Below are positions 6,054 through 44,092 of a stretch of 64,000 bases of DNA, piece by piece. Each line of letters starts with the position of its first letter. Position 1 is the stretch's first letter. Origin of the DNA: Escherichia coli (GTDB taxonomy: Bacteria; Pseudomonadota; Gammaproteobacteria; Enterobacterales; Enterobacteriaceae); assembly GCF_003334305.1 (NCBI RefSeq), contig NZ_QOWS01000024.1; one strand, written 5' to 3'. The notes under the pieces were generated by a model that did no database searches, was not told the origin of the DNA, and saw only the letters and a list, made by a program, of their open reading frames with translations. The translations under genes were made by a program, and so were the position numbers.

Positions 6054-7007
6054 TTAACCTATCTCCTGTAACGCATGTCTCTGGCGTTCGACGATATTGG
6101 TCCACAAATTGTCTTTATCGTCAGTCCACAAATTAATCAGCAAGGCAAAAAAGCGTTCTGCTGCCGGAGAAAGCACGGCATCTTTGCGGCGAATAATCCC
6201 CAATGTCCGACGTATAACGGGTTCCACCAGTGGAATACCAATAATCGAAGAATAGGGCGCATGGGGCATTGCCAGACCAGGAAGCGCCGAAATCCCCAGT
6301 CCCGCCTCTACCAGTCCTAATGACGTCGAAAGATGACGCACTTCGTAAAACCAGTCCAGCTTCCAGGGCTTGTCGGCTAGCTGTTGTTCTATCAACAATC
6401 GGTTGCCGCTGGAGGAACGTACGCCAATCATTTTGTAACCCACTAACTCCTGCCATTCTACAAGCTGCTTTTTGGCCAATGGATGGTCACGCCGACAGGC
6501 CAGCACGAATGGCTCGTTGACCAGTGGGGTAAAATCAATGGATGAATTTGTGACGTTGTTCATGTTTATGCCAAAGTCTGATTCGTTACACAGCACCGAT
6601 TCCATGCAATTATTCGTGCCTTGTTCCAGAATCCGCACTTTAATATTGGGATACAGCTCATTAAATTTACCGATTGCCAGCGGTAAAAAATAAAATACTG
6701 CGGTCGGAATACACGCTAACGTCACCATACCACGATGATAAGCATTCATATCACGAATATTAAAAAGCGTTTCATCGAATTTCTTTATTAATTCCCGCGC
6801 CTCCGGGAGCAACCTTTTTCCTGCTTTTGTTAACGTAACCTTGCGAGTTTTACGCTCAAATAGTTGAATATGTAAATCTTCCTCCATCTTTTTTATTCTT
6901 CGCGTTAATGCAGGTTGCGTAATATTGAGTAATTTAGCAGCATTGTTAAATGAACTGGACTCTGCCAGTATGACAAATGCCTTCATACTTGATAATTCAT
7001 GCTTCAT
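6054..7007 (-). CDS. ybhD: YbhD, LysR-family transcriptional regulator
   Basis: N-terminal HTH (ITQPALTRRIKKMEEDL), LysR substrate domain; 317 aa if started at MKHELSS (7005-7007); start choice uncertain. Confidence 0.85.
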   Translation of the reverse strand: MKHELSSMKAFVILAESSSFNNAAKLLNITQPALTRRIKKMEEDLHIQLFERKTRKVTLTKAGKRLLPEARELIKKFDETLFNIRDMNAYHRGMVTLACIPTAVFYFLPLAIGKFNELYPNIKVRILEQGTNNCMESVLCNESDFGINMNNVTNSSIDFTPLVNEPFVLACRRDHPLAKKQLVEWQELVGYKMIGVRSSSGNRLLIEQQLADKPWKLDWFYEVRHLSTSLGLVEAGLGISALPGLAMPHAPYSSIIGIPLVEPVIRRTLGIIRRKDAVLSPAAERFFALLINLWTDDKDNLWTNIVERQRHALQEIG

Positions 7008-7083
7008 TATTACTCCGGAAAATGGAAGCGACGATTTTGGGTGGCTGGTCGTTAAAAATTTTAACTGCATTTAGCCAACTTAA

Positions 7084-7106
7084 ATTAATGAAAAAATGTT
7101 ATTAAT
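7084..7106. promoter_or_regulatory. Candidate LysR-type operator (T-N11-A palindrome) in ybhD/ybhH divergent promoter region
   Basis: ATTAAT-N11-ATTAAT read directly in sequence. Confidence 0.3.
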
Positions 7107-7190
7107 CGTTGAGCTAAAGTCATTAGAGATGCTTTGTCCTTAATGTAACCATATCGCAATAAGTTATGTTTTTAAATTGAGGGCATTATT

Positions 7191-8243
7191 ATGAAAAAAA
7201 TACCCTGCGTGATGATGCGAGGTGGAACCTCGAGGGGCGCGTTCCTGTTAGCGGAACATTTACCCGAAGATCAAACGCAGCGCGATAAAATATTGATGGC
7301 AATTATGGGTTCCGGTAACGATCTGGAAATTGACGGTATTGGCGGCGGTAATCCACTGACCAGTAAAGTCGCCATTATTAGCCGTTCCAGCGATCCGCGT
7401 GCTGATGTTGATTATCTGTTTGCTCAAGTTATCGTCCATGAGCAACGTGTCGATACCACGCCTAACTGCGGCAATATGCTTTCTGGCGTTGGGGCATTCG
7501 CCATTGAAAATGGTTTGATTGCAGCGACATCACCGGTCACCCGTGTGCGTATCCGCAACGTCAATACGGGTACGTTCATCGAAGCTGATGTGCAAACGCC
7601 AAATGGTGTTGTCGAGTACGAGGGTAGTGCCAGAATTGACGGCGTACCGGGTACTGCCGCACCGGTTGCGCTCACTTTCCTGAATGCCGCTGGAACCAAA
7701 ACCGGAAAAGTTTTCCCGACTGATAATCAGATTGATTATTTTGACGATGTCCCGGTGACCTGTATCGATATGGCGATGCCAGTCGTCATTATTCCGGCTG
7801 AATATCTGGGAAAAACAGGTTATGAATTACCGGCGGAACTGGATGCCGACAAAGCATTATTAGCCCGCATTGAATCTATCCGTCTACAAGCGGGTAAAGC
7901 AATGGGCTTAGGTGATGTCAGTAATATGGTTATCCCTAAACCTGTGCTTATTTCTCCAGCGCAGAAAGGCGGGGCAATTAATGTGCGTTATTTTATGCCG
8001 CATTCTTGCCATCGCGCGCTGGCGATAACCGGTGCTATTGCTATTTCCAGTAGTTGTGCATTGGAAGGCACCGTCACCCGACAAATCGTCCCTTCTGTAG
8101 GATACGGCAATATCAATATTGAACACCCCAGTGGTGCGCTCGACGTTCATTTAAGTAATGAAGGTCAGGATGCCACGACGTTACGCGCATCTGTTATTCG
8201 GACAACCAGAAAAATATTTTCCGGTGAAGTTTATCTTCCCTGA
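7191..8243 (+). CDS. ybhH: YbhH, PrpF/4-oxalomesaconate tautomerase-like putative isomerase
   Basis: 350 aa ORF; family assignment from memory of YbhH. Confidence 0.85.
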   Translation: MKKIPCVMMRGGTSRGAFLLAEHLPEDQTQRDKILMAIMGSGNDLEIDGIGGGNPLTSKVAIISRSSDPRADVDYLFAQVIVHEQRVDTTPNCGNMLSGVGAFAIENGLIAATSPVTRVRIRNVNTGTFIEADVQTPNGVVEYEGSARIDGVPGTAAPVALTFLNAAGTKTGKVFPTDNQIDYFDDVPVTCIDMAMPVVIIPAEYLGKTGYELPAELDADKALLARIESIRLQAGKAMGLGDVSNMVIPKPVLISPAQKGGAINVRYFMPHSCHRALAITGAIAISSSCALEGTVTRQIVPSVGYGNINIEHPSGALDVHLSNEGQDATTLRASVIRTTRKIFSGEVYLP

Positions 8244-8318: not shown

Positions 8319-9752
8319 ATGAATAAGAAATCGTTATGGAAGCTAATTCTGATATTAGCGATCCCATGTATTATTGGCTTTATGCCAGCTCCGGCAGGAT
8401 TAAGCGAACTGGCCTGGGTGCTTTTTGGTATTTACCTGGCGGCCATTGTGGGGCTGGTTATCAAGCCTTTCCCGGAACCTGTCGTACTGTTAATTGCCGT
8501 TGCTGCCTCGATGGTGGTGGTCGGTAACTTATCCGACGGTGCGTTTAAGACCACCGCCGTATTAAGCGGTTACTCTTCAGGTACCACCTGGCTGGTGTTC
8601 TCGGCGTTTACCTTAAGCGCCGCATTTGTGACCACCGGCTTAGGTAAACGTATTGCCTATTTGCTGATTGGTAAAATTGGTAGCACTACCCTGGGTCTGG
8701 GTTACGTTACGGTATTTCTCGATCTGGTACTGGCTCCGGCAACACCGTCTAACACCGCGCGTGCGGGCGGCATTGTGTTACCGATCATCAACAGCGTGGC
8801 GGTGGCTTTGGGGTCCGAACCGGAAAAAAGTCCGCGTCGTGTCGGACATTACCTGATGATGTCCATTTACATGGTCACCAAAACCACCAGCTATATGTTC
8901 TTTACCGCAATGGCGGGGAACATTCTGGCGCTGAAAATGATCAACGACATTCTGCACCTGCAAATTAGCTGGGGTGGATGGGCGCTGGCCGCCGGATTGC
9001 CGGGCATCATTATGCTGCTGGTCACCCCGCTGGTGATTTACACCATGTATCCGCCAGAAATTAAGAAGGTGGATAACAAAACCATCGCCAAAGCGGGCCT
9101 TGCCGAACTGGGACCGATGAAAATCCGCGAAAAAATGCTGCTCGGTGTCTTTGTGCTGGCGCTACTGGGCTGGATTTTCAGTAAGTCTCTGGGGGTTGAT
9201 GAATCCACCGTGGCAATCGTTGTTATGGCGACCATGCTGCTGCTGGGTATCGTTACCTGGGAAGACGTGGTTAAAAATAAAGGCGGCTGGAATACCTTAA
9301 TCTGGTACGGCGGTATTATCGGCTTAAGCTCCTTATTATCGAAAGTTAAATTCTTCGAATGGTTAGCTGAAGTCTTTAAAAATAACCTGGCATTTGATGG
9401 TCACGGTAACGTTGCTTTCTTCGTTATTATTTTCCTCAGCATTATCGTGCGTTATTTCTTCGCTTCCGGTAGTGCCTATATCGTTGCTATGTTACCGGTA
9501 TTTGCCATGCTGGCGAACGTCTCCGGCGCACCGTTAATGTTAACTGCGCTGGCACTGTTGTTCTCCAACTCCTATGGCGGCATGGTTACTCACTATGGCG
9601 GCGCGGCAGGTCCGGTCATCTTTGGCGTGGGTTATAACGATATTAAATCCTGGTGGTTGGTCGGTGCGGTACTGACGATATTAACCTTCCTGGTGCATAT
9701 CACCCTCGGCGTGTGGTGGTGGAATATGCTGATCGGCTGGAACATGCTGTAA
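8319..9752 (+). CDS. ybhI: YbhI, DASS-family (CitT/TtdT-like) anion transporter
   Basis: 477 aa highly hydrophobic polytopic protein. Confidence 0.88.
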   Translation: MNKKSLWKLILILAIPCIIGFMPAPAGLSELAWVLFGIYLAAIVGLVIKPFPEPVVLLIAVAASMVVVGNLSDGAFKTTAVLSGYSSGTTWLVFSAFTLSAAFVTTGLGKRIAYLLIGKIGSTTLGLGYVTVFLDLVLAPATPSNTARAGGIVLPIINSVAVALGSEPEKSPRRVGHYLMMSIYMVTKTTSYMFFTAMAGNILALKMINDILHLQISWGGWALAAGLPGIIMLLVTPLVIYTMYPPEIKKVDNKTIAKAGLAELGPMKIREKMLLGVFVLALLGWIFSKSLGVDESTVAIVVMATMLLLGIVTWEDVVKNKGGWNTLIWYGGIIGLSSLLSKVKFFEWLAEVFKNNLAFDGHGNVAFFVIIFLSIIVRYFFASGSAYIVAMLPVFAMLANVSGAPLMLTALALLFSNSYGGMVTHYGGAAGPVIFGVGYNDIKSWWLVGAVLTILTFLVHITLGVWWWNMLIGWNML

Positions 9753-9934
9753 ATATACTCGTCATACTTCAAGTTGCATGTGCTGCGTCTGCGTTCGCTC
9801 ACCCCAGTCACTTACTTATGTAAGCTCCTGGGGATTCACTCGCTTGTCGCCTTCCTGCTACTCGAATTATTTAGAGTATATCCATTTATTATCTTTCTGC
9901 GCACTTCACGGTGCGCAGATATCGGGAGCATTTG

Positions 9935-26315: not shown

Positions 26316-27020
26316 ATGGACAGATTCCCACGTTCTGATTCAATCGTACAACCCCGGGCTGGCTTGCAAACTTATATGGCGCAAGTCTATGGCTGGATGA
26401 CCGTTGGCTTGTTGCTGACCGCATTTGTTGCCTGGTATGCGGCTAATTCCGCGGCCGTGATGGAGCTGTTGTTTACTAACCGTGTCTTTTTAATCGGTCT
26501 GATCATCGCGCAATTAGCATTGGTTATTGTGTTATCAGCGATGATTCAAAAGCTGAGCGCAGGTGTAACGACGATGCTCTTTATGCTTTATTCGGCGCTG
26601 ACGGGTCTTACGCTTTCCAGTATATTCATTGTCTATACCGCTGCTTCTATCGCCAGTACTTTCGTCGTTACTGCCGGGATGTTCGGCGCAATGAGCCTGT
26701 ACGGTTACACCACGAAGCGCGATTTAAGTGGCTTTGGCAATATGCTGTTTATGGCGTTAATCGGCATTGTGCTGGCATCGCTGGTCAACTTCTGGCTGAA
26801 AAGCGAAGCATTGATGTGGGCAGTTACCTACATCGGCGTGATTGTCTTTGTCGGATTGACGGCGTATGACACTCAGAAATTGAAAAATATGGGTGAGCAG
26901 ATTGATACCCGCGACACGTCGAACCTGCGCAAATATTCCATTCTTGGCGCGTTAACCTTGTATCTGGACTTCATCAACCTGTTCCTGATGTTGCTGCGAA
27001 TTTTTGGCAACCGCCGTTAA
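26316..27020 (+). CDS. ybhL: YbhL, BAX-inhibitor-1 (TMBIM)-family inner-membrane protein
   Basis: 234 aa from MDRFPRSDSIV; 7 predicted TM segments. Confidence 0.88.
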   Translation: MDRFPRSDSIVQPRAGLQTYMAQVYGWMTVGLLLTAFVAWYAANSAAVMELLFTNRVFLIGLIIAQLALVIVLSAMIQKLSAGVTTMLFMLYSALTGLTLSSIFIVYTAASIASTFVVTAGMFGAMSLYGYTTKRDLSGFGNMLFMALIGIVLASLVNFWLKSEALMWAVTYIGVIVFVGLTAYDTQKLKNMGEQIDTRDTSNLRKYSILGALTLYLDFINLFLMLLRIFGNRR

Positions 27021-27038
27021 TTCTTTTTCACCATCAAT

Positions 27039-27068: not shown

Positions 27069-27224
27069 TACTAAAAACGACACTTAACAAGTACCAGGTA
27101 TAAAATACGCCTTATGGCGAGCGGAAGCGTTTTCCGTATCCATAAATACAAAAGTATTTTGTATGCGTGGTTTTAAATTTATTGATGGTGAATATTAATA
27201 TTTTTTCTAAGGACAACTAAAAGA

Positions 27225-27938
27225 ATGGAATCATATTCACAAAACAGCAATAAATTAGATTTTCAGCACGAGACCAGGATATTAAACGGTATATGGCTCA
27301 TTACCGCTTTAGGTTTGGTGGCAACCGCAGGACTGGCCTGGGGAGCTAAGTATCTCGAAATTACGGCAACCAAATATGATTCACCAACAATGTATGTCGC
27401 CATAGGGTTATTATTAGTTTGTATGTATGGCTTAAGTAAGGATATCAACAAGATAAATGCCGTCATCGCAGGCGTAATATATCTGTTTTTACTCTCTTTG
27501 GTGGCGATTGTCGTTGCAAGTTTAGCTCCTGTACCTGCCATTATCGTCGTGTTCAGCACTGCGGGCGCGATGTTTTTAATCAGTATGCTGGCCGGTTTAT
27601 TATTTAATGTTGATCCTGGTTCTCACCGTTTTATCATTATGATGACGTTGACAGGTTTGGCCCTGGTGATCATCATGAATGCCGCATTAATGAGTGAACG
27701 ACCCGTTTGGGTAATAAGTTGCTTAATGATTGTGTTATGGTCAGGCATTATCTCGCATGGACGAAATAAGCTCCTTGAATTGGCTGGGAAATGCCATAGT
27801 GAAGAGTTGTGGAGTCCGGTTCGTTGCGCTGTTACAGGTGCATTAACACTCTATTACTATTTTATCGGCTTCTTTGGGATACTTGCCGCGATAGCTATAA
27901 CGCTTGTCTGGCAAAGGCATACGCGTTTTTTTCATTAG
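27225..27938 (+). CDS. ybhM: YbhM, BAX-inhibitor-1-family inner-membrane protein (paralog of YbhL)
   Basis: 237 aa hydrophobic ORF. Confidence 0.85.
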   Translation: MESYSQNSNKLDFQHETRILNGIWLITALGLVATAGLAWGAKYLEITATKYDSPTMYVAIGLLLVCMYGLSKDINKINAVIAGVIYLFLLSLVAIVVASLAPVPAIIVVFSTAGAMFLISMLAGLLFNVDPGSHRFIIMMTLTGLALVIIMNAALMSERPVWVISCLMIVLWSGIISHGRNKLLELAGKCHSEELWSPVRCAVTGALTLYYYFIGFFGILAAIAITLVWQRHTRFFH

Positions 27939-38674: not shown

Positions 38675-38819
<145 letters not shown>

Positions 38820-43969: not shown

Positions 43970-44092
43970 GCTGGACGTAGCGTAAACGCCTGATCCGTCC
44001 AACGGTTCGGATTTTGTAGGCCTGATAAGACGCGGTAGCGTCGCATCAGGCATCTGTTGCCGGATGCGGCGTAAACGCCTTATCCGTCCTAC
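43970..44092. repeat. REP/BIME cluster between ybiC and ybiJ
   Basis: At least three REP-type palindromes (GTAGGCCTGATAAGACGCGGTAGCGTCGCATCAGGCA, TGCCGGATGCGGCGTAAACGCCTTATCCGTCCTAC and another). Confidence 0.8.

Follow-up and report, generated by a model that had tools for sequence, protein, structure and literature searches.

A conserved dyad between ybhD and ybhH of Escherichia coli is the predicted recognition site of the LysR-type regulator YbhD

YbhD is one of the remaining uncharacterized LysR-type regulators of Escherichia coli K-12, and its locus raises the question of where on the DNA this regulator acts. We analyzed a stretch of E. coli DNA of 64,000 nucleotides (contig NZ_QOWS01000024.1, hereafter the window), in which the regulator gene ybhD and its divergent target ybhH are separated by an intergenic spacer of 183 bp (7008-7190, 68% AT). 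Inside this spacer, positions 7084-7106 read ATTAATGAAAAAATGTTATTAAT, that is, ATTAAT, 11 nt and again ATTAAT; this was seen by direct reading, and the repeat finder lists it as an inverted repeat. The dyad is conserved selectively and with a fixed geometry beside orthologues of YbhD and, judged from the sequence, it very probably is a docking site of this protein. We consider it likely that 7084-7106 is the high-affinity recognition site of YbhD and that the element CATTAG (7121-7126) is part of a lower-affinity activation site over the -35 region of ybhH. The features of the locus are as follows.

7084..7106, strandless: 23-bp dyad ATTAAT-N11-ATTAAT, predicted high-affinity recognition site of YbhD (sequence, conservation).
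7084..7089, strandless: left half-site ATTAAT, identical in 14/14 Escherichia, Citrobacter and Edwardsiella spacers.
7090..7100, strandless: 11-nt spacer GAAAAAATGTT of the dyad with a central A-tract; length fixed, sequence partly conserved, consensus g.g.AaAa.G.
7101..7106, strandless: right half-site ATTAAT, replaced by ACTAAT or ATCAAT in some Citrobacter and Edwardsiella and by AATAAT in Pseudomonas.
7116..7128, plus strand: second conserved block AAAGTCATTAGAG with the core CATTAG at 7121-7126, putative activation-site half over the ybhH -35.
7142..7148, plus strand: third, weaker block AATGTAA (consensus taTG.aA), 15 nt after CATTAG, from column conservation in 18 genus representatives.
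6054..7007, minus strand: ybhD, divergent LysR-type regulator gene, 317 aa (translation, RefSeq annotation, NCBIfam LysR-family matches).
7191..8243, plus strand: ybhH, PrpF-family isomerase (PDB 6OTV), first gene of the regulated unit (annotation).
8319-9752: ybhI, DASS anion transporter, next after ybhH (annotation, family matches).

The gene calls were checked against the RefSeq annotation of E. coli strain A7, which is 100% identical to the window. The first-pass annotation of this DNA, made from the letters alone, had placed the palindrome at 7084-7106, between the LysR gene ybhD and the divergent ybhH. Our search recovered the same coordinates as the sole exact match in the window, and the spacer 7008-7190 agrees with the RefSeq annotation. 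Since ATTAAT is its own reverse complement, the pair of hexamers is a direct repeat and an inverted repeat at once. Its core, T7089-N11-A7101, is a literal T-N11-A, flanked by the perfectly symmetric ATTAAT hexamers. Further copies of the dyad at ybhI or ybhJ were not found within 4 mismatches.

Is the dyad kept where the regulator is kept? The YbhH protein was scanned against one genome per bacterial species, which gave 80 loci, and a divergent YbhD orthologue lies immediately upstream in 74/80 of them (tblastn, 45-98% identity); thus, the ybhD-ybhH pair is an old conserved unit in Gamma- and Alphaproteobacteria. A total of 74 spacers (the window and 73 loci) were scored by their best match to ATTAAT-N11-ATTAAT. 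The match was exact in 19/74 spacers, had one mismatch in 12/74 and two mismatches in 26/74, whereas shuffled spacer sets contained on average 0.00 exact matches, 0.27 with at most one mismatch (maximum 3) and 3.06 with at most two. The first-pass annotation had held that lack of conservation in orthologous spacers would speak against the palindrome; on the contrary, 31/74 spacers carry it with at most one mismatch, against 0.27 expected, and the motif is thus far beyond chance. Exact copies were found in Escherichia species, Citrobacter, Dickeya, Lelliottia, Phytobacter, Enterobacter, Providencia, Kosakonia and Celerinatantimonas. They begin 100-108 nt before the start codon of ybhH and lie 38-88 nt from that of the regulator gene; since the former distance is near-constant and the latter variable, the dyad is positioned relative to the ybhH promoter.

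When the spacers were reduced to 18 genus-level representatives, 9 had the exact motif and 7 had one mismatch. The mean information content in this set is 1.66 bits for the hexamers, 0.80 bits for the spacer between them and 0.40 bits for the upstream flank (20 nt). The hexamers so far exceed the flank that the conservation must be selective, beyond shared ancestry. In the alignment of the 14 sequences from Escherichia, Citrobacter and Edwardsiella, the left hexamer is invariant, and the half of the intergenic spacer proximal to ybhD can hardly be aligned. The length between the hexamers is 11 in every match except L010, where it is 10 and the A-run is one base shorter. Within E. coli, the segment 7078-7132 (55 bp, including the dyad and CATTAG) is identical in 5135/5339 complete genomes, and the adjoining segment 7008-7077 (70 bp) is identical in 1214/4942. 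The differences within the species are probably lineage-level and not independent events; the contrast between the two segments agrees with the picture obtained between genera.

The dyad varies between clades. Pseudomonas has the variant ATT(G/C/A)(A/T)T-N11-AATAAT, 118 nt from the start codon and in GC-richer surroundings. In other Enterobacterales, which belong to the second subfamily described below, the dyad extends inward as ATTAATGYG-N5-CRCATTAAT, as expected of a site for a dimeric DNA-binding protein. The recognition helix of YbhD, (T/S)QPAL(T/S)RRIKK(L/M)E, is kept in orthologues sampled from every clade, and comparison of its variants with the operator variants between clades gave no clear pattern. 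Xanthomonad and alphaproteobacterial orthologues are accompanied by different motifs and geometry (GCAAT-N13-ATTGC; multiple ATCAAT/ATTGAT), and thus not all members of the family have the exact dyad. The xanthomonad spacers have several copies of ATCAAT/ATTGAT, including ATTGAT-N11-ATCAAT. Among the 6 loci without an adjacent YbhD orthologue, 5 have matches at the background level (3-5 mismatches) and 1 (L075) retains the motif. The latter, from a betaproteobacterial metagenome-assembled genome, reads ATTAATGCCCACACCGAAATAAT at L075:2391-2413, with CATTTT 14 nt later, 98 nt before the start codon of the YbhH homologue. No YbhD orthologue was found up to 2.5 kb away, and the gene upstream runs in the same direction; the gene for the regulator may lie at another place. 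The Pseudomonas loci (L018-L052 and L062) have an extra, strongly conserved palindrome, ACATCAAT-N7-ATTGATCAACAAGAGT, about 37 nt before the ATG of the ybhH orthologue, which is absent from the Enterobacterales spacers and could be a second operator or the site of another regulator.

The orthologues form two YbhD/YbhH subfamilies, with about 65-98% and about 54-59% identity to E. coli YbhD, respectively. The transporter gene of subfamily 1 encodes a DASS protein where checked (E. coli and Klebsiella), and the sole locus of subfamily 2 that was checked, L023, has a major facilitator superfamily (MFS) transporter together with a gene of the fumarylacetoacetate hydrolase family. Both subfamilies coexist in the genome of Klebsiella michiganensis (L016 and L031), and the genus Citrobacter also has both (L006-L013 versus L068). 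The pattern ATTAAT-N11-ATTAAT-N14-CATTAG is common to the two subfamilies, and because coexisting subfamilies share one operator pattern, regulatory cross-talk between them is possible.

How is the dyad placed with respect to the promoter of ybhH? The CATTAG block always follows the dyad by 14 nt in Escherichia, other Enterobacterales and Pseudomonas. In the 14 close relatives, GTCATTAG is invariant (14/14); at the same 14-nt offset, the second block is TTTGACATTAGAGTTAT in other Enterobacterales and TTTGCATTGGA in Pseudomonas. A perfect TTGACA lies inside the second block in most orthologues and, when it is taken as the -35 hexamer of ybhH, the center of the dyad in these orthologues is near -58; the E. 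coli hexamer, AAGTCA, is weak. LysR operators usually pair a symmetric, upstream recognition site with a weaker activation site that covers the -35 region (reviewed in PMC11495319), and the dyad followed by CATTAG over TTGACA would fit this layout. As in the generic LysR operator (BenM, CbnR and DntR; PMC11495319), regulator and target are divergent, a T-N11-A dyad is followed by a less symmetric block, this block overlies a -35-like TTGACA (here in the orthologues), and deletion of the regulator alters expression of the adjacent gene. Unlike it, the YbhD dyad has 23 bp and is conserved outward from the T and the A, whereas ATAC-N7-GTAT is so only inward. By the properties that mark LysR operators, the dyad has the T-N11-A symmetry, the location in a divergent spacer and the co-conservation with the regulator. 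The third block could be a -10-proximal promoter sequence or a distal activation sub-site. A sigma-54 promoter at the conserved TGGAAT-like block was considered by eye and rejected, because the GG-to-GC spacing is 11 and not 12 and E. coli has no GG there.

What would YbhD do at these sites? Using RNA sequencing, Rodionova et al. (Sci Rep 2022, PMC9068703) found a strong rise of ybhH expression upon deletion of ybhD, concluded that YbhD regulates adjacent genes and gave no operator. We found no published YbhD operator, electrophoretic mobility shift assay (EMSA) or footprint in the full-text literature on ybhD, ybhH, ybhI and ybhJ, and the operator is apparently new to the literature. From the comparisons above, we infer that YbhD is the protein that binds the dyad, that the site is divided into recognition and activation parts, and that both autoregulation and ligand-dependent activation occur. 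According to this model, a YbhD tetramer would sit on both the dyad and the CATTAG element; free of ligand, the tetramer would occlude the ybhH(I) promoter and keep it shut, which would explain the de-repression of ybhH in the ybhD deletion. The same occupancy would also limit transcription of ybhD (autorepression) and hence the synthesis of YbhD itself, since the ybhD promoter has to be in these ~100 bp. When bound to its ligand, YbhD would be expected to shift on the activation site and permit or stimulate transcription, by analogy with the 'sliding dimer' model of LysR-type regulators, and YbhD may thus activate ybhH in response to an inducer.

Several observations weigh against assigning the dyad to YbhD in this way. 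First, the published effect of YbhD under the tested condition is repression, which counts against the activating part of the model. The first-pass annotation had proposed activation of ybhHIJ by YbhD; ybhH does respond to loss of ybhD, but the direction is that of repression (PMC9068703). Second, chromatin immunoprecipitation with exonuclease digestion (ChIP-exo) in glucose M9 with a myc-tagged YbhD (Gao et al., NAR 2021, PMC8464067) gave a single weak peak (4066599-4066632, signal/noise 3.57), located inside yihP (yihP/yihQ) according to the supplement, and no peak in the ybhD/ybhH spacer; furthermore, the yihP peak contains no ATTAAT-N11-ATTAAT within 3 mismatches. This negative result is weak, because expression of ybhD under comparable conditions is very low (base mean ~10 reads). 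Third, the half-site centers of the dyad are 17 bp apart. The earlier description of the dyad as a LysR-type T-N11-A site holds literally for the core, but the 23-bp dyad is wider than the classical 15-bp LysR boxes. Fourth, a standard scan found no sigma-70 consensus promoter in the E. coli spacer, and the -65/-35 geometry is thus putative in E. coli. Fifth, the closest Klebsiella orthologues (65% identity), those of Klebsiella grimontii (L015) and K. michiganensis (L016), have only degenerate matches to the motif. Finally, a near-consensus box of another LysR-type regulator, Nac, lies within the dyad, as described below.

The two Klebsiella loci are, among the orthologues outside Escherichia and Citrobacter, the closest ones, and they have a DASS transporter; their spacers are 279-280 bp, ~100 bp longer. 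Both have ATTAAT-N11-AATAAC at 206-207 nt from the ATG. A further degenerate match, ATTGAT-N11-ATTAAG, lies at 116 nt in L015; L016 has it with a 10-nt spacer. Neither spacer has a CATTAG block, and the operator seems to be rearranged in these species.

One alternative is that another protein binds the dyad, either Nac or an AT-binding nucleoid protein such as H-NS, IHF or Fis. Nac has been reported to act on ybhH/ybhI, and the box ATGAAAAAATGTTAT (7088-7102) within the dyad differs from ATA-N9-TAT at a single position and agrees with the ChIP-exo motif ATAagnaaaanttAT. Furthermore, chromatin immunoprecipitation sequencing (ChIP-seq) by Aquino et al. (2017, PMC5217608, supplement 3) revealed a Nac peak in the ybhD/ybhH spacer, and the AT content of the spacer would suit an AT-binding protein. 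However, this peak is minimal (coverage 4) and its position, K-12 799955, corresponds to 7164 in the window, 69 bp from the center of the dyad, where it adjoins other ATA-N9-TAT-like sequences, ATCGCAATAAGTTAT and ATAAGTTATGTTTTT (7153-7173); an ATA-N9-TAT under a Nac peak was thus not found at 7088-7102. A stronger Nac peak (coverage 46) is located at the start of ybhI (K-12 801131, ~8340 in the window), and Nac may act mainly there. Across genera, conservation falls on the ATTAAT hexamers and not on the Nac-like spacer, the same architecture occurs beside the Pseudomonas orthologues of YbhD in GC-richer surroundings, and no IHF or CRP consensus is present. With its weak and distant peak and the less conserved Nac-like spacer, Nac was judged an unlikely reader of the hexamers, and the alternative as a whole seems improbable to us. 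As for CRP, ybhH is a listed CRP target in genomic SELEX (systematic evolution of ligands by exponential enrichment), but 6990-7200 contains no TGTGA-N6-TCACA within 3 mismatches, and this candidate was rejected.

Slightly less probable still is that the hexamers serve the divergent ybhD and ybhH promoters as -10-like boxes and are not a regulator site. ATTAAT agrees with TATAAT at 4/6 positions, and the promoters of LysR genes often overlap the recognition site. A relaxed promoter scan of the spacer gave weak candidates on the minus strand only, and these overlap the dyad: candidate 1 for ybhD has ATGACT (7123-7118) as the -35 and TAACAT (7101-7096) as the -10, and candidate 2 has TTAATT (7088-7083) and TAAAAT (7063-7058), respectively. 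However, both hexamers lack the critical A at position 2 of the -10 box, the standard scan reported nothing at the hexamers, and independent -10 boxes need neither an invariant 11-nt spacing nor the inward extension of the dyad seen in the second subfamily. This explanation is also compatible with YbhD as the binding protein, since an overlapping ybhD promoter would be a route to autorepression. The poor -35 of E. coli and the lack of a predicted promoter fit a near-silent ybhH (base mean ~2 reads).

Nearer to ybhD there is a second perfect palindrome of 15 bp, GTTAAAAATTTTAAC (7051-7065), with the canonical form TTA-N7-TAA and T-N11-A, which the first-pass annotation had missed. It lies 44-58 nt upstream of the ybhD start codon, overlaps the candidate -10 box TAAAAT (7063-7058, minus strand) and was found in Escherichia only. 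Two species (L002 and L014) have the variant GTTAAACAGTTTAAC, a symmetric double change that preserves the palindrome, and in L005 the counterpart is GTTAAACCAGTTTAAC, with the arms preserved and one additional central base. In L005 (Escherichia strain E69, CP089930), ybhH itself is broken near codon 41 by an insertion of ~770 bp (locus 1729-2499). The insertion has the size of an insertion sequence, with a 7-bp overlap of the flanks, and is probably IS1-like; the operator upstream is intact.

The first-pass annotation had warned that a palindrome could arise by chance in such an AT-rich region, and for E. coli alone the warning was justified. The exact motif occurs once in the window and in 0/100 shuffles of the window, and in 3/2000 dinucleotide-preserving shuffles of the 183-bp spacer. 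Yet 10.8% of the shuffled spacers contain a perfect 6+6 inverted repeat of some kind with 11 nt between the arms, and the spacer has 3 perfect 6+6 inverted repeats (spacers of 0-15 nt), compared with 1.8 expected; the E. coli sequence by itself is thus suggestive and not decisive. The comparative data effectively refute a chance origin: the counts in orthologous spacers given above, the fixed position and spacing amid diverged neighbors, and the near-invariance of the dyad segment, but not of the neighboring segment, among the 5339 E. coli genomes. A functionless chance palindrome is therefore very improbable. Least probable of all is an RNA hairpin in the 5' leader or a small RNA: the arms can pair, but the predicted fold (-6.3 kcal/mol, z-score -0.43 against shuffles) is unremarkable, Rfam has no match in the spacer, and the arms are the same self-complementary hexamer, conserved in sequence identity with no compensatory changes.

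Elsewhere in the window, the sole other match with at most one mismatch is ATTTATTGATGGTGAATATTAAT at 27177-27199, 26 nt before the start codon of the open reading frame 27225-27938, which corresponds to ybhM when its coordinates are mapped to K-12. No CATTAG accompanies this match. A two-mismatch match is located at 27016-27038, and a Nac ChIP-seq peak (K-12 819889, ~27098 in the window, coverage 6) falls between the two; the match at 27177-27199 is probably due to chance or is a Nac-type AT-rich site. Other Rfam matches in the window are known E. coli features. On the plus strand, a Moco (molybdenum cofactor) riboswitch scores 103.6 bits at 23344-23488; naRNA4/CssrE is on the minus strand at 44019-44089, and two ES036/CssrF small RNAs derived from repetitive extragenic palindromic (REP) elements lie at 22038-22079 and 38742-38784.

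How far does the regulated unit extend? In the ybhHIJ unit proposed earlier, ybhI follows ybhH; co-transcription of ybhJ with ybhHI is uncertain, because the 158-bp spacer between ybhI and ybhJ (9753-9910) holds an enterobacterial repetitive intergenic consensus (ERIC) repeat. At ~9796-9839 this spacer contains CGCTCACCCCAGTCACTTACTT, which corresponds to the ERIC2 primer in reverse complement, and then ATGTAAGCTCCTGGGGATTCAC, which corresponds to the ERIC1R primer, and thus the core of an ERIC/IRU (intergenic repeat unit) dispersed repeat. The segment (~9796-9839) has a median of 5 copies per E. coli genome.

Which known system does the locus resemble? The best NCBIfam match of YbhD is PsrA of Serratia marcescens (253.6 bits, E 1.8e-75); this falls well short of the cut-off for the family (540), and YbhD is therefore not a PsrA. 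PsrA, the closest named LysR profile, shares the layout with a recognition site and an activation site, which was established by EMSA and mutagenesis (PMC8754645). An operator of the PsrA type was rejected, since its boxes, TGT-N11-ACA and ACT-N11-AGT, are unlike ATTAAT-N11-ATTAAT. Another named regulator that is rather close to YbhD in NCBIfam is AlsR of Bacillus subtilis, which acts at the alsSD promoter. Its recognition site is said to be TAAT-N11-ATTA, which is contained exactly in the dyad; we mention this as a lead only. AlsR differs from YbhD in its target genes and its ligand, acetate. According to a review, the two sites bound by AlsR exceed the classical T-N11-A box in length (PMC11495319).

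By architecture, the closest characterized system is TarR and its promoter Ptar in Bacillus velezensis FZB42, which serve trans-aconitate assimilation (ISME J 2024, PMC11495376); we set it beside YbhD by gene layout, not by orthology. In both systems, a LysR gene is divergent from a gene for a PrpF-superfamily isomerase that is followed by a transporter gene, with a spacer of 173 bp there and 183 bp here; the isomerase of B. velezensis is an aconitate isomerase. TarR protects two regions from DNase I, and Ptar contains three self-complementary TTATAA hexamers, each of which is needed for TarR binding (PMC11495376). The AT-only self-complementary hexamers would be a further likeness (three TTATAA there; two ATTAAT, followed by CATTAG, here), although the hexamer sequence differs and the third block in the ybhD/ybhH spacer, CATTAG, is not self-complementary. 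Furthermore, the transporters are of different families (major facilitator for TarB, DASS for YbhI), and TarR is a demonstrated activator with trans-aconitate as the ligand, whereas YbhD has so far been seen only as a repressor. YbhH is a 4-oxalomesaconate tautomerase according to NCBIfam (515 bits, cut-off 440); among relatives with a solved structure, the 4-oxalomesaconate isomerase LigU is closest to it. The neighboring transporter varies by clade (DASS in E. coli and Klebsiella, MFS in Lelliottia and CitMHS in Pseudomonas), a variety that we would, as a speculation, regard as consistent with a tricarboxylate substrate. A malate-related growth phenotype of YbhD has been published.

Tentatively, and with considerable doubt, ybhD-ybhHI(J) might be regarded as the proteobacterial counterpart of TarR-TarAB, that is, as a system for ligand-gated uptake and isomerization of a tricarboxylate, with the 23-bp operator common to both subfamilies. 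If this is true, the substrate would be a plant-derived tricarboxylate, e.g., trans-aconitate or 4-oxalomesaconate.

The dyad is an ordinary kind of control element and does not introduce a new regulatory principle. Its significance is that the 43-bp pattern ATTAAT-N11-ATTAAT-N14-CATTAG makes the published conclusion that YbhD regulates adjacent genes directly testable: the pattern specifies the 43 bp for binding assays, the bases to mutate and the sequence for genome scans. In addition, the link of the ybhDHI cluster with the TarR-type systems for tricarboxylate assimilation suggests candidate ligands. Should the relationship to TarR hold, the operator consensus would permit prediction of the regulon and discovery of the ligand for an orphan regulator of E. 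coli.

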